Source: Escherichia coli 042 (GTDB taxonomy: Bacteria > Pseudomonadota > Gammaproteobacteria > Enterobacterales > Enterobacteriaceae). Taken from it: a DNA stretch of 64,000 nucleotides. The notes under the pieces are model-generated. The model was not told where the DNA came from. It was given only the letters and a program-made list of their open reading frames with translations, and did no database searches. The stretch is from assembly GCF_000027125.1 (NCBI RefSeq), contig NC_017626.1; one strand, written 5' to 3'. The number at the start of each line of letters is the position of its first letter. Positions within the stretch are counted from its first letter, which is position 1. Both the position numbers and the translations under genes were made by a program. Below are positions 340-52,991 of the stretch, piece after piece.

Positions 340-1392
340 GTGAACATATATATCGGGTGGCTTTTCAAATTAATCCCTTTAATTATGGGCTTAATTTGTA
401 TCGCGTTAGGTGGCTTTGTGCTGGAAAGTTCTGGGCAAAGTGAGTATTTCGTCGCGGGTCATGTGCTGATTTCTCTGGCAGCCATATGCCTGGCATTATT
501 CACTACCGCATTTATTATCATTTCGCAGCTCACGCGCGGCGTTAATACGTTTTACAATACATTGTTCCCCATTATTGGCTATGCGGGGTCAATTATCACC
601 ATGATATGGGGTTGGGCACTGTTAGCAGGCAATGATGTGATGGCAGACGAGTTTGTTGCCGGCCATGTTATTTTTGGCGTTGGTATGATTGCCGCCTGTG
701 TATCGACAGTGGCAGCGTCATCCGGTCACTTTCTGCTCATTCCCAAAAACGCAGCAGGGAGCAAGAGCGATGGAACACCGGTACAGGCTTATTCTTCATT
801 AATCGGTAATTGCCTCATTGCCGTTCCCGTTTTACTCACCCTGCTCGGTTTCATTTGGTCTATTACGCTGTTACGTAGTGCCGACATAACTCCGCATTAT
901 GTCGCCGGTCACGTATTGCTTGGGTTAACCGCAATCTGTGCCTGTCTAATTGGCCTTGTTGCCACAATTGTCCATCAAACACGTAATACGTTCTCATCCA
1001 AAGAACACTGGCTGTGGTGTTATTGGGTTATTATTCTCGGCTCAATCACGGTGCTGCAGGGCATATACGTGTTAGTCAGCTCCGATGCAAGCGCCCGACT
1101 GGCTCCCGGCATTATCCTCATTTGCCTCGGAATGATCTGTTACAGCATATTCTCAAAAGTCTGGCTACTGGCACTGGTCTGGAGACGTACCTGTTCGTTA
1201 GCCAACAGAATACCGATGATTCCCGTCTTCACCTGCCTGTTTTGCCTTTTCCTGGCATCGTTTCTTGCAGAAATGGCGCAGACCGACATAGGGTATTTTA
1301 TTCCTTCGCGGGTTCTGGTCGGTTTGGGAGCGGTATGCTTTACGTTGTTCTCAATCGTTTCAATATTAGAAGCAGGTTCTGCTAAAAAATAA
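340..1392 (+). CDS. yhiM: Inner membrane protein YhiM (350 aa, GTG start inside the 241..1392 ORF)
   Basis: Multi-TM hydrophobic protein with three internal copies of an (Y/F)VAGHV motif; GTG at 340 preceded by GAGGAG at 328-333; length and position match K-12 YhiM from memory. Confidence 0.75.
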   Translation: MNIYIGWLFKLIPLIMGLICIALGGFVLESSGQSEYFVAGHVLISLAAICLALFTTAFIIISQLTRGVNTFYNTLFPIIGYAGSIITMIWGWALLAGNDVMADEFVAGHVIFGVGMIAACVSTVAASSGHFLLIPKNAAGSKSDGTPVQAYSSLIGNCLIAVPVLLTLLGFIWSITLLRSADITPHYVAGHVLLGLTAICACLIGLVATIVHQTRNTFSSKEHWLWCYWVIILGSITVLQGIYVLVSSDASARLAPGIILICLGMICYSIFSKVWLLALVWRRTCSLANRIPMIPVFTCLFCLFLASFLAEMAQTDIGYFIPSRVLVGLGAVCFTLFSIVSILEAGSAKK

Positions 1393-1706
1393 TTGCAACG
1401 TACCGGATAAAACCAGCGTTGACCATTTGCGTAACGCTGGTTTTTCTCAGGTATCATGAAATAACGCAGAATTAATGCATAGTGGTTAAGTATAAAAAAA
1501 CAGCAAAGTTGCTGATTTTTTCAACCTGTTCATATTTTATAAAGATCTGGCCACTGGGGGAGTTTTAATCACCTTTCCTTCCACCTTATATTAAGCATGG
1601 AGGGTTTCAGTTCACAGGCTCATTAGAAAATAATCACAAGATAACCACTATCAAAATTAGCTCATTTTTAATGCGACTCTAATAATTTTCATCTTTAGGA
1701 AATAGC

Positions 1707-2909
1707 TCAGGACGACTTCGCTGCAATCAAATCCTGCGCACAAGCCCATGCACTCGACCACGCCCACTGGAAGTTATAGCCCCCCAGCCAGCCGGTGACG
1801 TCCATCACTTCGCCGATGAAGTACAGCCCAGGCACTTTGCGCGCTTCCATCGTCCGTGAAGAGAGTTCGTTGGTGTCCACGCCGCCGAGCGTCACTTCGG
1901 CAGTGCGATAGCCTTCAGTGCCGTTGGGTTGTACGCGCCAGTCGGTCAATGTGCTAATCAGTGCCTGTTGGTCACGCACGTTGAGCTGTTTTAGCGAGAC
2001 ATCCGGGATTTGCCCGAGTTGTTGTAAACGTTCAACCAACCGCTTCGGTAGATGAACCGCCAGAGTGTTTTTCAGGCTCTGATTCGGATGTGCATTACGC
2101 TGCTCATTCAGGAAGGTTTCGAGGTCCACATCCGGTAGCAGATTGATACTGACAAATTCACCCGGTTGCCAGTAGCTGGAAATTTGCAACACCGCCGGTC
2201 CAGATAAGCCGCGGTGGGTGAAGAGTAAGTTCTCACGGAAAACGGTGCCGTTTTCAGCGGTAATCACGGAAGGCACCGCCACGCCCGCCAGCACCTGTAA
2301 CTCTTCGAGCAACGGTTTATGCAGAGTGAATGGCACCAGGCCCGCGCGGGTCGGCAGCACGTTGAGGCCAAATTGTTCGGCAATCTTATAACCAAACGGC
2401 GACGCGCCCAGCCCCGGCATTGACAGTCCACCGGTCGCGATGACCAGCTTTTCGCAACCGACAGTCATGCCGTTCAGTTCAAGCGTGAAGCCTGTTTCAT
2501 CCTTCGCCACACTCAGCACTTCGCTACGCAATCTGAAGGCCACATTGCCCTTCTCGCACTCATCCACCAGCATGTCGACAATCTGCTGCGCGGAGTCATC
2601 GCAGAAGAGTTGCCCTAACGTTTTCTCGTGCCAGGCGATGCCGTGTTTATTGACCAGATCAATGAAATCCCACTGGGTAAAACGCGCGAGTGCAGACTTA
2701 CAAAAATGCGGATTCTGGCTCAGATAAGCGCCCGGTTCGACATAAAGGTTGGTAAAGTTGCAGCGCCCACCGCCAGACATGAGGATTTTGCGCCCTGGTT
2801 TTTTACCATTATCGATCAGCAGAACCCGGCATCCTGCCTGACCTGCCAGCGCAGAACAGAACATACCTGCCGCACCAGCGCCTATAATAATGGCATCAAA
2901 CCTTTCCAC
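1707..2909 (-). CDS. yhiN: FAD-dependent oxidoreductase YhiN (400 aa)
   Basis: N-terminal dinucleotide-binding motif IIGAGAAGMF; full-length ORF; convergent with yhiM as in K-12. Confidence 0.85.
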   Translation of the reverse strand: MERFDAIIIGAGAAGMFCSALAGQAGCRVLLIDNGKKPGRKILMSGGGRCNFTNLYVEPGAYLSQNPHFCKSALARFTQWDFIDLVNKHGIAWHEKTLGQLFCDDSAQQIVDMLVDECEKGNVAFRLRSEVLSVAKDETGFTLELNGMTVGCEKLVIATGGLSMPGLGASPFGYKIAEQFGLNVLPTRAGLVPFTLHKPLLEELQVLAGVAVPSVITAENGTVFRENLLFTHRGLSGPAVLQISSYWQPGEFVSINLLPDVDLETFLNEQRNAHPNQSLKNTLAVHLPKRLVERLQQLGQIPDVSLKQLNVRDQQALISTLTDWRVQPNGTEGYRTAEVTLGGVDTNELSSRTMEARKVPGLYFIGEVMDVTGWLGGYNFQWAWSSAWACAQDLIAAKSS

Positions 2910-3140
2910 GTTGCGCTCCTCTAAGAAAAAACGGGCGTGAATTGTAAAGATTCCTCAGTGGTCGCACCAGCATCAATATTACTAAAAGGAAGTATTTACC
3001 TGAATTATATAAGATAATTATTTTTTGAGTGAAATCCATACAGGAGGCAAATCAAAAAAAGTCTATATTTCACTTTGCCCGCGCCGCGAAAGTCACTGAT
3101 AATGCGCCGCGTTCATGTCCTCAAAATGGCGTAACGTCCT

Positions 3141-4640
3141 ATGCTACATTTGTTTGCTGGCCTGGATTTGCATACCGGGCTGTTATTATTGCTTGCACTG
3201 GCTTTTGTGCTGTTCTACGAAGCCATCAATGGTTTCCATGACACAGCCAACGCCGTGGCAACCGTTATCTATACCCGCGCGATGCGTTCTCAGCTCGCCG
3301 TGGTTATGGCGGCGGTGTTCAACTTTTTGGGTGTTTTGCTGGGTGGTCTGAGTGTTGCCTATGCCATTGTGCATATGCTGCCGACGGATCTGCTGCTTAA
3401 TATGGGATCGTCTCATGGCCTTGCCATGGTGTTCTCTATGTTGCTGGCGGCGATTATCTGGAACCTGGGTACCTGGTACTTTGGTTTACCTGCATCCAGC
3501 TCTCATACGCTGATTGGCGCGATCATCGGGATTGGTTTAACCAATGCGTTGATGACCGGGACGTCAGTGGTGGATGCACTCAATATCCCGAAAGTATTAA
3601 GTATTTTCGGTTCTCTGATCGTTTCCCCTATTGTCGGCCTGGTGTTTGCTGGCGGTCTGATTTTCTTGCTGCGTCGCTACTGGAGCGGCACCAAGAAACG
3701 CGCCCGTATCCACCTGACCCCAGCGGAGCGTGAAAAGAAAGACGGCAAGAAAAAGCCGCCGTTCTGGACGCGTATTGCGCTGATCCTTTCCGCTATCGGC
3801 GTGGCGTTTTCGCACGGCGCGAACGATGGTCAGAAAGGCATTGGTCTGGTTATGTTGGTATTGATTGGTGTCGCACCAGCAGGCTTCGTGGTGAACATGA
3901 ATGCCACTGGCTACGAAATCACCCGTACCCGTGATGCCATCAACAACGTGGAAGCTTACTTTGAGCAGCACCCTGCGCTGCTGAAACAGGCTACCGGTGC
4001 TGATCAGTTAGTACCGGCTCCGGAAGCTGGCGCAACGCAACCTGCGGAGTTCCATTGCCATCCGTCGAATACCATTAACGCGCTCAACCGCCTGAAAGGC
4101 ATGTTGACTACCGATGTGGAAAGCTACGACAAGCTGTCGCTTGATCAACGTAGCCAGATGCGCCGCATTATGCTGTGCGTTTCTGACACTATCGACAAAG
4201 TGGTGAAGATGCCTGGTGTGAGTGCTGACGATCAGCGCCTGTTGAAGAAACTGAAGTCCGACATGCTTAGCACCATCGAGTATGCACCGGTGTGGATCAT
4301 CATGGCGGTCGCGCTGGCGTTAGGTATCGGTACGATGATTGGCTGGCGTCGTGTGGCAACGACTATCGGTGAGAAAATCGGTAAGAAAGGCATGACCTAC
4401 GCTCAGGGGATGTCTGCCCAGATGACGGCGGCAGTGTCCATCGGCCTGGCGAGTTATACCGGGATGCCGGTTTCCACCACTCACGTACTCTCCTCTTCTG
4501 TCGCGGGGACGATGGTGGTAGATGGCGGCGGCTTACAGCGTAAAACCGTGACCAGTATTCTGATGGCCTGGGTGTTTACCCTTCCGGCTGCGGTACTGCT
4601 TTCCGGCGGGCTGTACTGGCTCTCCTTGCAGTTCCTGTAA
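3141..4640 (+). CDS. pitA: Low-affinity inorganic phosphate transporter PitA (499 aa)
   Basis: Polytopic membrane protein, PiT family, with a charged central loop; length matches PitA. Confidence 0.9.
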
Positions 4641-4658
4641 TCGCACGCACCAAAACGA

Positions 4659-4688
4659 GCGGGTCAGTTTACTGGCCCGCTTTTTTTA
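4659..4688. terminator. Probable bidirectional rho-independent terminator between pitA and uspB
   Basis: GC-rich hairpin agcgggtcagtttactggcccgct followed by a T7 run, 19 nt after the pitA stop. Confidence 0.6.
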
Positions 4689-4710
4689 TGCGTTATTTTT
4701 GCTGAAGTGC

Positions 4711-5046
4711 TTAATGCCAAATCATCAATGCAATCAGACTGACCACCACCAGACCACACAATGCGCTGGTCAGAATAAACTGCCGACGCACCCGCTCACA
4801 GCGGCGAATAAACTCATCATCGTGATGATCGCGATAACGTTGGGCATAGATATACCAAACGAGACGCACCTGTTTGTTGGGTTGGCCATGTGAGGTAAAA
4901 AAGCCCCCTCCATCAACATATTGATAGAGCAATGGATCGCAGTTACGCAGTACCACTAACAACGCGCGTAGTGATGAGAAATAGCGCGCCATGTTAACAA
5001 TGCAAACGACACATAAAGCCCAAAATAATGCGACGGTGCTTATCAT
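4711..5046 (-). CDS. uspB: Universal stress protein B (111 aa, membrane)
   Basis: Small two-TM protein of the expected length, divergent from uspA. Confidence 0.85.
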
Positions 5047-5273
5047 ACCTCCTCCCCGGCGACCTGCCCGCGGAGTTCCACCCCGGGGCTACCGCTCCCG
5101 ATACGCTGCCAATCAGTTAACACCAGGTCCTGGAGAAACCGCTTTTGTGGTGACCAACATCCGAGCGGCTCTATAGATAGTGTAGGAGATCAGGTTGTTT
5201 TTTTTCCAGAAGGTTAACCACTATCAATATATTCATGTCGAAAATTTGTTTATCTAACGGGTAAGCAAGGCGG

Positions 5274-5301
5274 ATTGACGGATCATCCGGGTCGCTATAA
5301 G
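5274..5301 (+). promoter_or_regulatory. Candidate sigma-70 promoter of uspA (-35 ATTGAC / TTGACG, -10 TATAAG)
   Basis: Hexamers at 5274-5280 and 5296-5301 with a 15-16 bp spacer, about 135 bp upstream of the uspA ATG. Confidence 0.5.
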
Positions 5302-5436
5302 GTAAGGATGGTCTTAACACTGAATCTTTACGGCTGGGTTAGCCCCGCGCACGTAGTTCGCAGGACGCGGGTGACGTAACGGCACAAGAAACGCTAGCTG
5401 GCCAGTCATCGACAACTTTATGGAAGGAGTAACACT

Positions 5437-5871
5437 ATGGCTTATAAACACATTCTCATCGCGGTCGATCTCTCCCCGGAAAGCAAAGTTCTGGTAGAGA
5501 AAGCAGTCTCTATGGCTCGCCCCTACAATGCGAAAGTTTCTCTGATCCACGTAGATGTAAACTACTCTGACCTATACACCGGGCTTATTGATGTGAATCT
5601 GGGTGATATGCAGAAACGCATCTCTGAAGAGACACATCATGCGCTGACCGAGCTTTCCACTAATGCAGGCTACCCAATCACTGAAACCCTGAGCGGCAGC
5701 GGCGACCTGGGCCAGGTTCTGGTCGATGCAATCAAGAAATACGATATGGATTTGGTGGTTTGTGGTCACCACCAGGACTTCTGGAGCAAACTGATGTCTT
5801 CCGCACGTCAGCTGATCAACACCGTTCACGTTGATATGCTGATTGTTCCGCTGCGCGACGAAGAAGAATAA
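5437..5871 (+). CDS. uspA: Universal stress protein A (144 aa)
   Basis: Usp-family sequence [17 protein letters not shown]; RBS GGAGTAAC upstream; length matches UspA. Confidence 0.9.
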
Positions 5872-5897
5872 TCTTCCCTCTACGACGTGTTCCTGAA

Positions 5898-5926
5898 CGC
5901 CCGCATATGCGGGCGTATTGCTTTTT
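5898..5926 (+). terminator. Rho-independent terminator after uspA
   Basis: Perfect hairpin cgcccgcatatgcgggcg followed by tattgcttttt. Confidence 0.6.
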
Positions 5927-6186
5927 GGCGCGCCTTGTTAACTTGCAGCGTAAACACCTTATCTGGCCTACGGTCTGCGTACGCAATCAAAATCCCCTGC
6001 CAATACAACATTTAACACCATCATATTTTCCATCATTAGTGTGATCAGCTGGTTATTTTCTGTTGTAATAGTGTATTAATCTATTCACCGCATCAATATT
6101 AAGAATCTCTGACAGATGTAAACTTTTTCGCGCGTTATCCCTTACGCGTTCATACTTTTCAGGATGGTATTGGAAGGTTAATAAAT

Positions 6187-7656
6187 ATGAATACAACAAC
6201 ACCCATGGGGATGCTGCAGCAACCTCGCCCATTTTTCATGATCTTTTTTGTCGAGTTATGGGAGCGATTCGGCTACTACGGCGTGCAGGGCGTACTGGCG
6301 GTTTTCTTCGTTAAGCAGCTTGGATTCTCGCAAGAACAGGCTTTTGTCACTTTTGGTGCTTTTGCTGCGCTGGTCTATGGCCTCATTTCCATTGGCGGCT
6401 ATGTCGGCGACCACCTGCTGGGGACCAAACGCACCATTGTTCTCGGAGCACTTGTGCTGGCGATTGGCTACTTCATGACCGGCATGTCGCTACTTAAGCC
6501 TGACCTGATTTTCATCGCCCTGGGGACTATCGCTGTCGGTAACGGCCTGTTTAAAGCTAACCCAGCCAGCTTGCTTTCGAAGTGCTATCCACCGAAAGAT
6601 CCGCGGCTTGATGGCGCATTCACCCTGTTCTATATGTCGATCAACATCGGCTCGTTGATAGCGTTATCGCTGGCCCCTGTGATCGCTGATAGATTCGGCT
6701 ATTCAGTCACCTACAACCTGTGCGGTGCGGGATTAATTATCGCGCTATTGGTTTACATCGCCTGTCGCGGAATGGTGAAAGACATTGGTTCTGACCCCGA
6801 CTTCCGGCCGATGAGCTTCAGCAAACTGTTGTACGTGTTACTTGGCAGCGTGGTGATGATCTTCGTCTGTGCATGGCTGATGCACAACGTAGAAGTCGCC
6901 AATCTGGTGCTGATTGTTCTCTCCATCGTCGTCACCATCATTTTCTTTCGTCAGGCATTCAAGCTGGATAAAACCGGGCGCAATAAAATGTTTGTCGCCT
7001 TTGTCCTGATGCTCGAAGCGGTGGTGTTTTACATTCTCTACGCCCAGATGCCAACGTCACTGAACTTCTTTGCCATCAACAACGTGCATCATGAAATTCT
7101 CGGCTTTTCCATCAACCCGGTCAGCTTCCAGGCGCTTAACCCTTTCTGGGTGGTACTCGCCAGTCCAATACTGGCAGGCATTTACACGCATCTGGGTAAC
7201 AAAGGCAAAGACCTCTCGATGCCGATGAAATTTACTCTCGGCATGTTTATGTGCTCGCTGGGCTTTCTTACAGCCGCCGCTGCGGGAATGTGGTTTGCTG
7301 ATGCACAAGGACTGACATCGCCGTGGTTTATTGTGCTGGTTTACTTATTCCAGAGCCTGGGTGAACTGTTTATTAGCGCCCTTGGCCTGGCGATGATTGC
7401 TGCCCTGGTGCCGCAGCATTTGATGGGCTTTATTCTCGGGATGTGGTTCCTGACGCAGGCTGCCGCGTTCTTGCTGGGCGGCTATGTGGCAACATTTACC
7501 GCAGTACCAGACAACATTACCGATCCGCTTGAGACGTTGCCCGTCTATACCAACGTGTTTGGTAAGATTGGCCTGGTTACGCTGGGCGTTGCGGTGGTGA
7601 TGCTGCTGATGGTGCCGTGGCTGAAACGAATGATTGCGACGCCCGAAAGCCATTAA
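6187..7656 (+). CDS. dtpB: Proton-dependent di/tripeptide permease DtpB (POT family, 489 aa)
   Basis: POT/PTR2 N-terminal region [22 protein letters not shown]; about 12-14 TM segments. Confidence 0.9.
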
Positions 7657-13384: not shown

Positions 13385-13470
13385 GCGTTAGATGATGGCA
13401 TTCTCACTCCAGCCAGAGCCACCAACTCAGGGCTGAAGAGTAAAAAAACCGACGCAAAGTCGGTTTTTTT
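13385..13470 (+). ncRNA. agrA: agrA-like small RNA (approximate ends)
   Basis: First full copy of the repeat ctctcactccagccagagccaccaactcagggctg ending in the terminator aaaaaaaccgacgcaaagtcggttttttt; the 5' end is a guess. Confidence 0.45.
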
Positions 13471-13616
13471 ACATCCGGATTCGGACAAGGCTTAATATGA
13501 CGATGACCCAGTGAAAGTATATAAATCGTCACTGCGATATATACCGAAGTGCTCCCTCCGCCAGCTGAAGAAACCGCTAATTCTTGCAATGTTAGCCACT
13601 GGCTAATAGTATTGAA

Positions 13617-13701
13617 CCGTTAGATAAGAGCTCTCTCACTCCAGCCAGAGCCACCAACTCAGGGCTGGAAAGTAAAAAACCGACGCAAAGTCGGTTTTTT
13701 T
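13617..13701 (+). ncRNA. agrB: agrB-like antisense small RNA, antitoxin for dinQ (approximate ends)
   Basis: Second copy of the same repeat and terminator (13674-13701); complementary to the partial repeat at 13190-13250 that lies inside the dinQ transcript. Confidence 0.45.
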
Positions 13702-13853
13702 ACGTCCTGATTCAGACCTCCTTTCAAATGAATACCCAACGCTTAATTCACACCTATTACCTTCCTCTGCACATACACATTCGTTAAACCATATATGTTT
13801 TTGACTTATCCGCTTCGAAGAGAGACACTACCTGCAACAATCAGGAGCGCAAT

Positions 13854-14207: not shown

Positions 14208-14254
14208 AAAATTTGCCTGGATATATATGATTTTCCGAATGTGAGGTGTCGAAG

Positions 14255-14617
14255 ATGAAGACGTTAACGGTGTTTGATCCGGCGATGTGTTGCAGTACCG
14301 GCGTCTGTGGTTCTGATGTTGATCAGGTGCTGGTCGATTTTTCCGCAGATGTGCAATGGCTGAAAAGCCGCGGTGTTCAGGTCGAACGTTACAATCTCGC
14401 GCAGCAACCGATGAGTTTCGTGCAAAACGAAAAAGCGAAAGCGTTTCTTGAGGCTTCCGGGGCGGAAGGATTGCCCTTGATCTTACTGGGAGGCGAAACC
14501 GTGATGGCGGGCCGTTATCCGAAACGCGCCGAGCTAGCCCGCTGGTTTGGGATCCCGCTGGAGAAGGTGGGGCTGGCACCAACACACTGCTGTGGCGGAA
14601 AAACCGACTGTTGTTGA
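14255..14617 (+). CDS. arsD: Arsenic metallochaperone / secondary regulator ArsD (120 aa)
   Basis: MKTLTVFDPAMCCSTGVCG with Cys12-Cys13-Cys18 and a C-terminal cysteine-rich tail; ATG at 14255 preceded by gaggtg. Confidence 0.85.
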   Translation: MKTLTVFDPAMCCSTGVCGSDVDQVLVDFSADVQWLKSRGVQVERYNLAQQPMSFVQNEKAKAFLEASGAEGLPLILLGGETVMAGRYPKRAELARWFGIPLEKVGLAPTHCCGGKTDCC

Positions 14618-14634
14618 GCCGGTCAGGGGGACAT

Positions 14635-16386
14635 ATGAAATTCTTACAGAATATCCCGCCTTATCTGTTTTTTACCGGTAAGGGAGGTGTAGGTAAAACG
14701 TCAATTTCCTGCGCAACTGCTATCCATCTGGCGGAACAGGGAAAACGGGTTCTGCTTGTCAGCACCGACCCCGCGTCGAATGTCGGTCAGGTATTTAATC
14801 AAACTATTGGTAACGCTATTACTCCTGTGACAGCGGTTCCCGATTTGTCAGCGCTGGAAATTGACCCTCAGCAAGCCGCTGAACAGTATCGGGCCAGAAT
14901 CGTTGACCCTATCAAAGGACTTCTCCCTGAGGAGGTTGTAAATAGTATACGCGAACAACTTTCGGGAGCATGTACGACAGAGATCGCGGCGTTCGATGAG
15001 TTCACCGGTTTACTGACCGATGCCTCTCTGCTGGCCCGCTTTGATCACATCATTTTTGATACCGCGCCAACGGGCCATACCATACGACTTCTGCAGCTCC
15101 CCGGTGCCTGGAGCAGTTTTATTGAAAGTAATCCCGATGGTGCCTCCTGTCTTGGCCCGATGGCTGGGCTGGAAAAACAGCGTGAGCAGTACGCTGATGC
15201 GGTAGAAGCATTATCCGATCCTGAGCGTACCCGCCTGGTGCTGGTTGCACGCCTGCAAAAATCAACATTGCAGGAAGTCGCTCGCACTCATGAAGAACTG
15301 GCAGCGATTGGTCTTAAAAATCAGTATCTGGTGATCAACGGCGTATTGCCTGAGTCCGGGCAGCAAAATGACCCACTAGCAATGGCAATAGTTCAGCGTG
15401 AGCAGGAAGCCCTGGTAAATTTACCCGCCGGTTTATCGACCATTCCAGCAGATACCCTCTTTCTTCAACCGGTGAACATGGTTGGCGTGCCTGCATTAAA
15501 AGGTCTTTTTAATACCCGTTTCGAGCCTGCCCCACTCTCTGGCCAGGTGCGCCAGCAATTCTCTGAAAACATGTCATTCTCTGAGTTAGTGAATGATATT
15601 GCCCGCAGTGAACACGGTCTGATCATGCTGATGGGAAAAGGCGGCGTGGGGAAAACCACAATGGCCGCAGCTATCGCCGTCAGGCTGGCAGATATGGGAT
15701 TCGATGTGCATCTTACAACCTCCGATCCTGCTGCCCACATTAACACTACCCTAAACGGCACACTTAACAACCTACAGGTCAGCAGGATCAATCCGCAGGA
15801 AGAGACCGAGCGCTATCGCCAGCATGTCCTTGAGACAAAGGGAAAAGATCTCGATGAAGCGGGGAAACGACTGCTGGAAGAGGATTTACGCTCTCCCTGC
15901 ACCGAAGAGATTGCTGTATTTCAGGCGTTCTCGCGCGTGATCCGTGAGGCGGGTAAACGTTTTGTGGTGATGGATACCGCACCAACCGGTCACACGCTGT
16001 TACTGCTGGATGCCACCGGGGCTTATCACCGTGAAATTGCGAAAAAAATGGGCGAAAAAGGTCACTTTACTACGCCAATGATGCAACTTCAGGATCCGCA
16101 ACGCACCAAAGTGCTGCTGGTTACGCTGCCTGAAACCACACCCGTACTGGAAGCGGCTAATTTGCAGGCCGATCTTAAACGCGCAGGGATTCATCCCTGG
16201 GGCTGGATAATCAATAACTGCCTTTCTATTGCGGAAACTCGTTCGTCGCTACTGTGTCAGCGAGCAACGCAGGAACGACCACAAATTGAGGCGGTGATGG
16301 CCCGACATGCTAAGCGTGTAGCGCTGGTCCCTCTATTCGCACAAGAACCTACGGGTATCGAAAAACTCAGAAAGCTGGCAAGTTAA
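14635..16386 (+). CDS. arsA: Arsenite-stimulated ATPase ArsA (583 aa)
   Basis: Two homologous halves each with a P-loop (GKGGVGKTS, GKGGVGKTT) and DTAPTGHT signature. Confidence 0.9.
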   Translation: MKFLQNIPPYLFFTGKGGVGKTSISCATAIHLAEQGKRVLLVSTDPASNVGQVFNQTIGNAITPVTAVPDLSALEIDPQQAAEQYRARIVDPIKGLLPEEVVNSIREQLSGACTTEIAAFDEFTGLLTDASLLARFDHIIFDTAPTGHTIRLLQLPGAWSSFIESNPDGASCLGPMAGLEKQREQYADAVEALSDPERTRLVLVARLQKSTLQEVARTHEELAAIGLKNQYLVINGVLPESGQQNDPLAMAIVQREQEALVNLPAGLSTIPADTLFLQPVNMVGVPALKGLFNTRFEPAPLSGQVRQQFSENMSFSELVNDIARSEHGLIMLMGKGGVGKTTMAAAIAVRLADMGFDVHLTTSDPAAHINTTLNGTLNNLQVSRINPQEETERYRQHVLETKGKDLDEAGKRLLEEDLRSPCTEEIAVFQAFSRVIREAGKRFVVMDTAPTGHTLLLLDATGAYHREIAKKMGEKGHFTTPMMQLQDPQRTKVLLVTLPETTPVLEAANLQADLKRAGIHPWGWIINNCLSIAETRSSLLCQRATQERPQIEAVMARHAKRVALVPLFAQEPTGIEKLRKLAS

Positions 16387-18156: not shown

Positions 18157-18201
18157 AGCGGCGATATCCACTGCCGATAGTTGGTAAAGTGCGCTTCGTT
18201 T

Positions 18202-18296
18202 ATGTCGGATGCGACGCTAACGCGTCTTATCCGACCTACAAAACCGTGCAAATTCAATATATGGCATGAAATCTGTAGCGCGTAGCGCATCAGGCA
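18202..18296. repeat. REP-like palindromic units downstream of arsC
   Basis: atgtcggatgcgacgctaacgcgtcttatccgacctac and gtagcgcgtagcgcatcaggc resemble the REP consensus. Confidence 0.5.
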
Positions 18297-18586
18297 ATTT
18301 TGCTATTTACGCAGCACTCCTCGCGTAAGAATTCAATTATCGCTTCCAGCATTGCGTATTGCGAAACACACATCAGCGTCCGACTCTCACGGTTTTGTTT
18401 GACCAGCCCTACCGATACCAGTGCTGAAATATGGTGACTGAGTGTAGAGCCGGGTATCCCAAGCTGCTTTTGCAACTCACCGACCGGCAAACCTTGTTCC
18501 CCCGCTTTGACCAGGTGTTTGAATATGAACAAACGGGTCGGGTGACCTAGCTCTTTCAGCGCTTTAGCAACTTCTTCCAACTGCAT
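18290..18586 (-). CDS. ArsR/SmtB-family metalloregulator (98 aa), divergent from the downstream permease
   Basis: Winged-helix sequence LGHPTRLFIFKHLVKAGEQGLPVGELQKQLGIPGSTLSHHISALVSVGLV; cysteines near the C-terminus (MCVSQ, ECC). Confidence 0.75.
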   Translation of the reverse strand: MQLEEVAKALKELGHPTRLFIFKHLVKAGEQGLPVGELQKQLGIPGSTLSHHISALVSVGLVKQNRESRTLMCVSQYAMLEAIIEFLREECCVNSKIA

Positions 18587-18693
18587 ATGACACCCCCTTT
18601 GTCTGGTTGATATTTCGATAATACCAGAAATATCTTGATCTGAATTTCATTTCGATTATTCTGGAAATATGGATTCATTCAATGAGGTTACGT

Positions 18694-19695
18694 ATGAGTA
18701 GTTGGCTTGCGATGCTGCAAGATGCCGCAGAGATGTTTGTGTTTCTCGCCGTCGAGCTTTCTTTGCTGTTTATAGTGATTAGTGCCGGTGTCAGCCTGAT
18801 AAGACAAAAGGTGCCAGACCATAAAATCCAGCAGATGATGGGGGCCAGAAAAGGGAGAGGCTATCTCCTGGCGGCTCTGTTGGGAGCCGTTACCCCGTTC
18901 TGTAGTTGCTCGACAATCCCCATGTTACGTGGATTGTTGTCAGCGAAAGCCGGGTTCGGTCCGACCCTCACTTTTTTATTTGTTTCACCGTTACTTAATC
19001 CCATTATCGTCGGACTAATGTGGGTAACCTTTGGCTGGAAAGTTACCTTGTTGTACGCGATTATCGCCGCCGGCATCTCCGTACTTGCCAGTATTATCCT
19101 CGATTCTCTGGGGTTTGAACGTCATATCATTGCCAGTAAAAGCTCATCAGCAAATTGTTGTGCTCCAGCCAAAACTTCGCCAGGGACGACATATACGCCC
19201 ATAAAAGTGAGTTGCTGTAGTCCAGCGGCTAAAGTCATTGAGAAACCCGCAGTTAACTGTTGCAGTACCAAAGCAGTGGCAAGTATTAATCCCATAAAAT
19301 TAGCCATCAAAGATGCATTGCAGCAGTTTAAAGACGTACTGCCATATCTTGTGTTAGGGGTATTACTAGGCTCTTTTATTTATGGCTTTATCCCCTCACA
19401 GTGGATTGCCGCTCATGCAGGGGCAGATAATCCCTTCGCCATCCCATTGAGCGCCGTTGTCGGAATTCCGCTGTATATCCGGGCAGAGGCGGTTATCCCT
19501 CTGGCATCTGTTCTGATGACAAAAGGAATGGGTCTGGGAGCATTAATGGCATTAATCATCGGCAGTGCCGGAGCAAGCCTGACGGAAGTGATATTACTTA
19601 AATCAATGTTCAGAATACCGATGATAGTTGCATTCCTGACGGTTATATTAGGTATGGCTATCTTGATGGGCTATTTGACTCAAATGCTATTTTAA
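18694..19695 (+). CDS. Permease with a cysteine-rich central loop (ArsP / DUF318-like, ~333 aa)
   Basis: TM helices including a TPFCSCS motif flank a hydrophilic loop with three CC pairs (ANCCAP, VSCCSP, VNCCST); start set at the second ATG, which has GAGG upstream. Confidence 0.7.
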   Translation: MSSWLAMLQDAAEMFVFLAVELSLLFIVISAGVSLIRQKVPDHKIQQMMGARKGRGYLLAALLGAVTPFCSCSTIPMLRGLLSAKAGFGPTLTFLFVSPLLNPIIVGLMWVTFGWKVTLLYAIIAAGISVLASIILDSLGFERHIIASKSSSANCCAPAKTSPGTTYTPIKVSCCSPAAKVIEKPAVNCCSTKAVASINPIKLAIKDALQQFKDVLPYLVLGVLLGSFIYGFIPSQWIAAHAGADNPFAIPLSAVVGIPLYIRAEAVIPLASVLMTKGMGLGALMALIIGSAGASLTEVILLKSMFRIPMIVAFLTVILGMAILMGYLTQMLF

Positions 19696-20275
19696 ATAGA
19701 TGCCAGCAGTAAACTATAAGGAGCATTGTGAGTGCCTTATCCTTCTGAGTAGAAAATCATAGATAGGATAATCCTTAAAAATCACAAATAACTTAACTAA
19801 TGCTTTGAGAATGATGACGGATCCGTCAGTAAGTCATCAATCGACAATCACCACGCAATCATGCTTCTCTGACATTTTATCGGAGAAGCAATGTCTCTTT
19901 GTTTCAGTGCTATCCCCCCTTTTAAAGGGCAGATTTCAGTCGCCAATACAACACATTTTTAAATACACTTTAACCTGGTTCATTATTACACATCTAAAAC
20001 ATCACAAAAATATCACTTCACACACTATCGGTGAACATCATAACTTTTTAAAATGAGCGCTTTTTGATAGTTGTTAACGTTTTCCTTTACGATACTATCA
20101 CTGCCCTTTTTTTATACACAAATATTACCGGGTGGAGATAAAAGGGAAATCAAAGGTAATTATATCAGGAAGAGATAACGCATTACATTTATTGTGTGTA
20201 GAAGAAAATCCATTCCTGTTCTAATTATCCAATTTAAACATCTTAGCATAAAACAAATGATGAATAAGGAATTTT

Positions 20276-21499
20276 ATGTCAATTGACTTTACCCCAGGTA
20301 TGATAAATACATATCACGGCGATATTTATAACCGCACAACAGATACCGACAATGTTAAAACACCAGACACACCGATGTGGCCTTGTGATAATCAGGAAGA
20401 ACAGCAGCCCATTAATTTTTCATTGTCTGAAGAAGGATATAACGCTGAACAATTTGATTTAGCGCAACAACAACTCCAACAAATTAATGCGTACCACACG
20501 AACACCACATATACAAATGCAGACTACTCAAAAATTGTGGCTCAAATTGTAAGTCTTATTAATAACATTGAAACGATAAGTTCGACACCACTTACGCAAC
20601 AGACACAATCAATACTTAATCAGATTAATAACATTAGATACGAAAAGAATAAAAATTCTGAATGTCGAATCATTGTTGTCGCTAATCCTAAACCCGACAA
20701 GGCAATCATAACTAAAATTAGCGTAGAAGAGGGAATACCAGTAAGATTCAGTGTCCAAACCATGTTTTCAGATACTAATTTTATTACTGAACAACGAGCT
20801 GACTTACCGACTAATATAAAAGATATTCAAAGCCTGTATCAAAAAATGACGAAGTTATATATTGAGCACAGTGAAAATAAAAACAGGATGAAAGTCTTTG
20901 CCGGAACCAACTTTATTGATTTCAATATGACAGGACAGAACCTGTCCGGGTTCGTTCTAACCTTGTCAAGGTTTTATTTCGAAGATCTACTTAATATAAA
21001 TTTCACTGACGCAAATTTAGGTGACGCTATTTTTTCACATAAAGAACACCCTACCCCAAAATTATATAAAGACGAACAATACCTTGACAAACAAATCGAA
21101 GGTTTATTTTCAACATTATTAACCATTAATGACAACTTTTTACGAGCAAAAGCGGAAATTGCTTCGACAATAATTAAATTCTTAGAGGCCAGGATAACCA
21201 ATATTTCATACAATGACATATTAAAATATCAGAAAGAATTCCAAAAGCAATGTTATAAGCAAGTTAAAGCCTTTACGACACTCTCCCGATACAATAAAAT
21301 TCAAACATGGGCAGAAATGTCTGAATATCAATTCGAAGTATTTCAATACGAGATGCTTAACCCCAAAAAAATGTCATACGCACCTTATTTAAAGAGATCG
21401 CTACCTGATGAAAAAACTATAAATTATGGGGTGGAAATAGAAACACCAACTGGCAAAAGAATTCGCTTATCAAATCATTACCAGAATATAATCCCATAA
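20276..21499 (+). CDS. yhiS: Pentapeptide-repeat protein, intact YhiS-like (407 aa)
   Basis: AT-rich ORF with about 10 consecutive period-5 repeats ([45 protein letters not shown]); position matches yhiS. Confidence 0.7.
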
Positions 21500-52882: not shown

Positions 52883-52894
52883 TAAGAGTGAAAA

Positions 52895-52991
52895 GCCTGA
52901 TGCGCTACGCTTATCAGGCCTGAATTTCCATACAATATATTGAATTCGCAAAGATTTGTAGGACGGATAAGGCGTTCACGCCGCATCCGGC
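52895..52991. repeat. REP/BIME-like palindromic units between yhjE and yhjG
   Basis: gcctgatgcgctacgcttatcaggcc and gtaggacggataaggcgttcacgccgcatccggca match the REP consensus; a further hairpin gccggatgtcagacatccggc lies at 53034-53054. Confidence 0.55.

Follow-up and report, generated by a model that had tools for sequence, protein, structure and literature searches.

A divergent gene pair downstream of arsC in Escherichia coli 042 is probably a self-contained, self-regulated unit that confers resistance to trivalent organoarsenicals, above all methylarsenite, MAs(III), by efflux. The pair lies in a 64,000-nucleotide stretch of contig NC_017626.1 (assembly GCF_000027125.1), which was analyzed at its full length and is referred to as the window. 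One gene encodes a 98-amino-acid (aa) ArsR/SmtB repressor (18290-18586, minus strand) and the other a 333-aa permease of the ArsP family (PF03773, Transporter Classification (TC) 2.A.119; 18694-19695, plus strand), with 107 bp between them. An earlier note on this DNA had reported a 98-aa ArsR/SmtB regulator downstream of arsC and a divergent permease with a TPFCSCS motif and a loop of three vicinal Cys pairs, and had read the two as a second module for sensing and exporting metals or organoarsenicals. Both proteins were found as described, the regulator in an open reading frame (ORF) with HTH_20, HTH_5 and NF033788 matches and the permease with all the named Cys motifs. Our comparisons support the module reading, and the organoarsenical option is favored by orthology to the characterized regulator SpArsR, by a common operator and by recurrence in ars contexts. 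This kind of system, an SpArsR-type repressor with an ArsP-family permease, is already known; the E. coli member is unnamed and is labeled only 'ArsR/SmtB family transcription factor' and 'permease' by the Prokaryotic Genome Annotation Pipeline (PGAP).

The regulator and its operators

The regulator matched Pfam HTH_20 (E = 2.4e-14) and HTH_5 (1.3e-06) and scored 61.9 bits against the NCBIfam metalloregulator ArsR/SmtB model NF033788 (cut-off 55), which places it in the ArsR/SmtB family. Its cysteines, C73 (nt 18368-18370), C91 (18314-18316) and C92 (18311-18313), were invariant in 60 of 60 regulator sequences. C73 lies in the beta-hairpin, and a Cys of NdArsR aligns with it. The closest solved homologue was AfArsR (6J05, E = 4.7e-10), on whose C95/C96 the C91/C92 pair aligns exactly (EECC on ENCC); the same pair aligns on DQCC of SpArsR. 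The protein ends in CCVNSKIA, with no Cys past the pair and no equivalent of AfArsR C102, so that two of the three cysteines of the AfArsR type 2 site (C95/C96/C102) are present. The type 1 site of R773 ArsR (C32-V-C34-x2-C37, helix alpha3) has no counterpart either, since the corresponding segment, LPVGELQKQLG, contains no Cys, unlike the ArsR encoded elsewhere in the window, which carries ELCVCDL. The regulator has no Cys in helix alpha3 or the recognition helix and no alpha5 His/Asp ligands, which means that none of the known sites (As(III) type 1, Cd/Pb, Zn/Ni) is present.

The supplement of PMC12124457 gives the sequence of the SpArsR gene of Shewanella putrefaciens 200 (Sput200_1227) and, for the neighboring arsP (Sput200_1226), a promoter of 222 bp. 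The E. coli regulator was 54% identical to SpArsR over an alignment that includes Cys73 and the CC pair. SpArsR was in turn about 90% identical to its orthologue (58% identical to the E. coli regulator) in the near-identical island of Shewanella ANA-3. The S. putrefaciens arsP promoter aligned to the part of the ANA-3 intergenic region that runs up to the beginning of the permease orthologue; this orthologue and the E. coli permease are 51% identical. On these grounds, namely the identity to SpArsR, the common operator described below and the orthology of the permeases, the E. coli pair is an orthologue of a characterized MAs(III)-responsive regulator and its target. The regulator also combines the sequence features of the SpArsR type: vicinal cysteines at the C-terminal end of alpha5, no third Cys, and an adjacent arsP with a common operator.

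In the literature SpArsR is described as an AfArsR-like protein that has no third Cys and responds selectively to MAs(III), the original report being that of Chen, Nadar and Rosen (2017). In a biosensor made of SpArsR and the arsP promoter, the signal reached 73% of full derepression with 1 µM MAs(III) and 9% with 50 µM As(III); pentavalent species and dimethylarsenite, DMAs(III), gave none (PMC12124457). These responses count against the alternative that the pair is a module for inorganic As(III)/Sb(III), with the permease as a second As(III) exporter that possibly works with ArsA as ArsB does. The absence of a Cys after the CC pair of the E. coli regulator argues in the same direction, whereas some orthologous regulators do have an AfArsR-like third Cys (CC-x4-C), as this alternative would lead one to expect. 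Its genomic side is taken up with the ars contexts below. As a separate matter, Cys73 was considered as the third sulfur of a cross-dimer three-sulfur (S3) As(III) site; this was set aside as the main model, since SpArsR, which carries this Cys too, hardly responds to As(III).

A non-metal function was also considered, in which the regulator cysteines form a redox, persulfide or electrophile switch like that of BigR or YgaV and the permease exports a sulfur compound or thiol. YgaV and BigR were the next-best solved homologues of the regulator (E about 2e-07), and a glutathione synthase homologue stands beside the permease in a few genomes. The regulator scored 38.5 bits against the NCBIfam BigR model, far under its cut-off of 155, and the N-terminal Cys partner of the BigR/SqrR type is missing. 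With the arsenic context and the orthology to SpArsR pointing elsewhere, we regard such a function as very improbable.

The intergenic region (18587-18693), where the earlier note had placed a promoter, contained paired conserved elements and two promoter-like sites, consistent with that proposal. Within it a 37-nt direct repeat occurs twice (18597-18633, 18634-18670), and each copy holds one 18-bp TTTC-N10-GAAA element. Putative operator site 1, TTTCGATAATACCAGAAA (18613-18630), falls in the spacer/-10 region of a promoter-like site for the permease (-35 at 18607-18612, -10 at 18631-18636). Putative operator site 2, TTTCGATTATTCTGGAAA (18650-18667), overlaps the -10 of a minus-strand promoter-like site for the regulator (-35 at 18682-18677, -10 at 18660-18655). 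In the alignment of the S. putrefaciens arsP promoter with the ANA-3 region, conservation was concentrated on two operator-like sites, one of which shares 22 identical bases with the E. coli site 1 (18614-18635). The elements were kept across genera while the flanking intergenic sequence diverged. In a scan of 80 permease loci at 47-84% identity, with one genome per species, TTTC-N10-GAAA occurred within 330 nt 5′ of the permease in 67 loci (104 sites; background 0.018 per 350 nt), even where no regulator gene was adjacent.

The permease

The kinship with ArsP/DUF318 permeases that had been suspected was borne out by an end-to-end match to Pfam ArsP_1 (PF03773; E = 1.4e-51, residues 13-334). 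The start at 18694 was preferred over that of the ORF list (18682, 337 aa) because it is the PGAP start, agrees with the N-termini of orthologues (MSSW/MNSW/MNEW) and has a GAGG Shine-Dalgarno sequence six bases upstream. The TPFCSCS motif (18892-18912, plus strand; residues 67-73) contains Cys70 and Cys72 and lies at a break between short helices 55-66 and 71-83. It is part of a TPFCSCST sequence that was invariant in the clade alignment, and such a Cys-x-Cys pair in the first half is a feature of the ArsP family. The central loop (19108-19290, plus strand; residues 139-199, 61 aa) is predicted to be disordered and cytoplasmic, with a predicted local distance difference test (pLDDT) score of about 50. 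Its six cysteines are all paired, as CC at residues 155-156, 174-175 and 189-190, and the only other Cys of the protein are those of TPFCSCS. Among homologues the loop ranged from 29 to 120 aa and from 0 to 7 CC pairs, with Cys-rich and His-rich versions alternating, while the membrane parts were highly conserved.

An AlphaFold2 model built from 76 homologues reached a pLDDT of 88 and a predicted template modeling (pTM) score of 0.84 and was unconfident only at residues ~145-199. The model shows the two homologous halves of PF03773, each composed of one long and one short helix, two short-helix pairs interrupted at conserved motifs, and a last helix. The breaks fall at TPFC (67-70), PLLNP (99-103), the PLY region (~261-263) and GAS (293-295). 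The C-terminal half of the permease aligned with the N-terminal half of YraQ, a K-12 paralogue that is 24% identical overall. Lys plus Arg averaged 3.5 across the clade in the first loop (residues 40-54) and 0.5 in its second-half counterpart (233-248). This distribution suggests two halves of opposite orientation in the membrane, with one re-entrant helix pair per half and the Cys-rich loop on the cytoplasmic side. By analogy with the two conserved cysteines of Campylobacter jejuni ArsP, Cys70-x-Cys72 at the helix break is likely to be the translocation site. A PDB sequence search with the permease gave only a chance-level match, a Foldseek search with the model returned no significant solved structure, and in the literature we found no transport assay for members of this clade.

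The NCBIfam models bear on a further alternative, a module for soft-metal cations (Cd, Zn, Cu, Hg, Pb) of the SO_0444 kind, in which the three-Cys regulator would sense a thiophilic metal and the Cys-rich loop would bind metal. The nearest model was indeed that of SO_0444 Cu/Zn efflux (NF033936, 109.2 bits), narrowly above SaoE (NF040736, 86 bits). Mutants of SO_0444 and Shew_3410 are sensitive to Zn and Cu, the alternation of Cys-rich and His-rich loops would suit metal binding, and ars neighbors are missing at most loci. The score against SO_0444, however, is far under the cut-off of 300; related clade members scored ~55-122 bits against the same model, with all tested subfamilies at ~55-120. 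Membership in the SaoE family is likewise not indicated, as its cut-off is 325 and no SAO ABC importer genes adjoin. The partner of SO_0444 is a MerR/ZntR regulator, not one of the ArsR type, and the E. coli regulator has neither the alpha5 His/Asp ligands nor the alpha3N or alpha4 Cys of metal-sensing relatives. Its characterized orthologue SpArsR senses MAs(III). Clustering of neighboring ORFs in the 80 loci recovered no recurrent third gene family, although neighbors were not annotated family by family and metal-resistance genes were not specifically excluded. On sequence grounds this reading appears weaker than the organoarsenical one, and we consider it quite unlikely.

Arsenic context and distribution

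Close orthologues (67-90% identical) were found in Escherichia fergusonii, Citrobacter, Salmonella plasmids and Aeromonas. The 80 species loci were mostly from marine Gammaproteobacteria, with some from Alphaproteobacteria and Halobacteriovorax. An orthologous regulator (46-99% identical) was adjacent in about 58 of them, usually in divergent orientation. At the others no alternative regulator was seen and the operator was mostly kept. The neighbor clusters that did emerge reflected lineage-specific synteny (LysR at 18 loci, SigZ at 12, a glutathione synthase homologue at no fewer than 4).

Arsenic genes accompany the pair in several unrelated arrangements. It follows arsRBC in Escherichia whittamii and arsRDABC in Citrobacter, adjoins arsR-arsD-arsA-phosphatase-gapdh-arsJ in Aeromonas tecta, and lies inside the arr/ars island of Shewanella ANA-3. 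In two metagenome-assembled genomes an AfArsR-type regulator and a more distantly related ArsP-like paralogue precede the permease. The orders arsD-arsA-permease-acr3 in Craterilacuibacter, with short gaps, and acr3-arsD-arsA-permease-regulator in Endozoicomonas put the permease directly after arsD-arsA, as would suit the inorganic As(III)/Sb(III) alternative. Castillo and Saier (2010) proposed a coupling of ArsA with ArsP, reported ArsP homologues next to ArsA in E. coli, Aeromonas and Yersinia, and set apart an ArsP form with a hydrophilic insert between transmembrane segments 4 and 5. The vicinal CC pairs of the loop recall ArsD as well. On the other side, the host is already equipped with ArsAB for As(III), and Campylobacter jejuni ArsP is described in a review as exporting MAs(III) and trivalent roxarsone, Rox(III), and not As(III). 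Together with the weak response of SpArsR to As(III), these points make an inorganic As(III)/Sb(III) module unlikely in our view.

Several observations weigh against the organoarsenical assignment. No ars genes lay within 6 kb in about 70 of the 80 loci, nor near the plasmid and Aeromonas veronii copies, an arrangement that also fits an autonomous unit. The ArsP-like paralogues of ars operons are 29-32% identical to this permease clade, and PF03773 also includes the Zn/Cu exporters SO_0444 and Shew_3410. The two PF03773 clades occur in tandem or in one island (positions 4924-7116 of extracted locus L024, 2168-4214 of L025, and 2922-3959 and 5986-7062 of L040), so they may differ in substrate. 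Vibrio-clade regulators carry an extra Cys97 (CC-x4-C) that resembles the AfArsR triad, so specificity might differ between family members. The invariant Cys73 has no role in a two-cysteine model of sensing. The SpArsR sequence was taken from machine-read PDF text with frame breaks, and C. jejuni ArsP was likened to the E. coli permease by family and description. A literature search with the RefSeq accessions of the two E. coli proteins returned no papers.

Two further features of the species loci were observed. In Citrobacter (L006-L008 and L021, ~1230-7092) a seven-gene block of arsRDABC, regulator and permease lies within a lambdoid prophage, between lambda-P/DnaT-like replication genes on one flank and DinI, RusA and lysis genes on the other. 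The prophage location points to transfer of the block as a whole by phage. In Shewanella ANA-3 the gene directly 3′ of the permease (L040, 7087-8649) encodes a glutathione synthase homologue of the eukaryotic type (TIGR01986, 205 bits, below the cut-off), and the homologue also occurs near the permease in Endozoicomonas and Psychromonas (L034, 9602-11119; L069, 3448-4902). A published figure of Shewanella/Aeromonas arsenic modules likewise draws 'permease' and 'glutathione synthetase' genes.

Within E. coli, 2223 of 5426 complete genomes held at least 80% of 18157-20275, and another 3166 had the K-12-type junction. The species is thus split nearly cleanly between the intact pair and the K-12-type state; O157 Sakai is in the latter, deleted state. 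K-12 keeps the window sequence up to 18359 (the last ~23 regulator codons), a 42-bp fragment of the permease (19300-19341) and everything from 19967 on. Because K-12 retains these deletion scars of both genes, the pair was lost in the K-12 lineage rather than gained in 042. A copy of the pair about 79% identical in DNA was present in 801 plasmid records, mostly conjugative, from E. coli, Salmonella and Klebsiella. Two of these records were examined: they were IncFIA/IncN, one also IncFII, and had the pair flanked by an IS26 copy and a ProQ/FinO-like gene, and ars genes were absent from the vicinity. Among the plasmids listed with a copy (for example that at 7394-8431 of L016), many come from chicken, pig, turkey and duck isolates and others from humans; any connection with feed arsenicals is pure conjecture.

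The gene order in the window is gor, dinQ/agrAB, arsR, arsD, arsA, arsB, arsC, the regulator-permease region, a yhiS-like gene, slp, dctR and chuS. The pair thus lies between arsC and yhiS, an interval that the earlier note had described as free of genes in K-12 and that there indeed spans 628 bp without a gene. That note had also placed repetitive extragenic palindromic (REP) elements between arsRDABC and the pair, and two REP-like sequences were found between arsC and the regulator. Element 1, GTCGGATGCGACGCTAACGCGTCTTATCCGACCTAC (18204-18239, plus strand), has a core that matches REP-like copies elsewhere in the window. Element 2 (~18271-18296, minus strand) is inverted relative to it and contains TGCCTGATGCGCTACGC at 18280-18296, of which a one-mismatch copy lies at 52894-52910 (0.03 expected by chance). 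Relatives of both sequences occur at ~52894-52973. Element 2 covers the regulator stop codon and the final two codons. Regulator orthologues are 98 aa in E. coli and Citrobacter chromosomes and 106-108 aa on plasmids, in E. whittamii and in some Aeromonas. From the overlap and the longer orthologues, the REP sequence may have replaced a native C-terminal tail. A terminator-like hairpin (19862-19890, plus strand), recognized by a consensus match only, lies ~170 nt 3′ of the permease stop, and no Rfam family matched within 18157-20400.

Three observations concern the surroundings of the pair. Two small RNAs of the Rfam AgrB family (13388-13472 and 13620-13703; 108 and 94 bits) lie between gor/dinQ and arsR, a placement that resembles the K-12 agrA/agrB locus. 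The yhiS-like ORF (20276-21499, 407 aa) is intact and very AT-rich (~33% GC); yhiS is interrupted by IS5 in K-12 and frameshifted in strain GN25. The arsD-arsA segment (14246-16386) occurred in 258 of the 5426 complete E. coli genomes, at 222 chromosomal and 43 plasmid places, and adjoins the regulator-permease pair in the strains listed.

Proposed mechanism and comparison with known systems

We propose the following mechanism for an organoarsenical efflux unit. A dimeric winged-helix repressor would bind both 18-bp TTTC-N10-GAAA operators, as their conservation and position suggest, and since the operators overlap the two divergent promoters, the regulator and permease genes would both be kept off. 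MAs(III), which needs two sulfur ligands, would bind Cys91-Cys92 at the C-terminal end of alpha5, by orthology with SpArsR, and the repressor would be released. The permease, modeled as a two-fold inverted repeat with broken helices, Cys70-x-Cys72 in mid-membrane and a cytoplasmic Cys-rich loop, would then export the arsenical, presumably driven by the proton-motive force. The export step is suggested by family membership and by analogy with C. jejuni ArsP, two conserved cysteines of which are reportedly required for transport; these are C65/C67, which we take to be the counterparts of Cys70/Cys72. More speculatively, the CC-rich loop may capture the thiophilic substrate close to where it enters, a role comparable to that of ArsD toward ArsA.

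Among the trivalent organoarsenicals are methylarsenite, a natural compound of antibiotic-like character that anaerobes of gut and soil produce, and roxarsone-type feed additives in their active forms; animal feed has also contained related aromatic arsenicals. If the proposal is correct, an inducible methylarsenite defense is present in about 41% of E. coli strains and on hundreds of resistance plasmids, which would give a simple genetic explanation for strain-to-strain differences in organoarsenical tolerance. The pair could then be included when genomes are surveyed for metal and metalloid resistance determinants. For biosensors it would also offer a promoter and repressor that are native to E. 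coli and respond to MAs(III); the usual biosensor host, K-12, has no such pair. Because the system type is known already, the gain would be one of annotation and ecology, not of principle. Tentatively, and with some doubt, the pair might be a widespread overlooked determinant of tolerance to trivalent organoarsenicals in Enterobacteriaceae, deleted in K-12-like and O157 lineages and spread on about 800 plasmids, mostly conjugative and of IncF type; Cys73 and the cytoplasmic CC loop might in addition reveal a sensing or substrate-capture step so far undescribed for SpArsR or ArsP.

Among known transporters, ArsB and the DASS/Pho90 proteins of the Ion Transporter superfamily have no detectable sequence similarity to the permease and are larger (430-540 aa vs 333 aa). 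SO_0444 and Shew_3410 of Shewanella (NF033936) share its PF03773 fold family and the CSC motif but differ in their regulation by a ZntR-like MerR protein and in their phenotypes, which are in Zn and Cu. C. jejuni ArsP (TC 2.A.119.1.1) belongs to the same Pfam family and is a short form of ~315 aa, encoded in an ars operon under a conventional ArsR. The E. coli permease, in contrast, carries a CC-rich loop of 61 aa and is paired with a regulator dedicated to it.

That regulator matches AfArsR of Acidithiobacillus ferrooxidans (6J05), a type 2 As(III) sensor, in its vicinal cysteines (Cys91-Cys92 for Cys95-Cys96) but not in the third, C102, through which AfArsR binds As(III) in three-coordinate fashion. 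The AfArsR-type regulators at L020 and L024, for their part, have no beta-strand Cys equivalent to C73. SpArsR and arsP of S. putrefaciens 200 resemble the E. coli pair in their divergent orientation and in the same three Cys positions (C83/C101/C102 vs C73/C91/C92), the difference in numbering being due to a 10-residue N-terminal extension that the E. coli regulator does not have. The intergenic region is 107 bp in E. coli and ~240 bp in S. putrefaciens. The Shewanella pair resides in an arr/ars island and has a second ArsP-like gene, more distantly related, as its neighbor, whereas the E. coli pair follows arsC behind a pair of REP elements.

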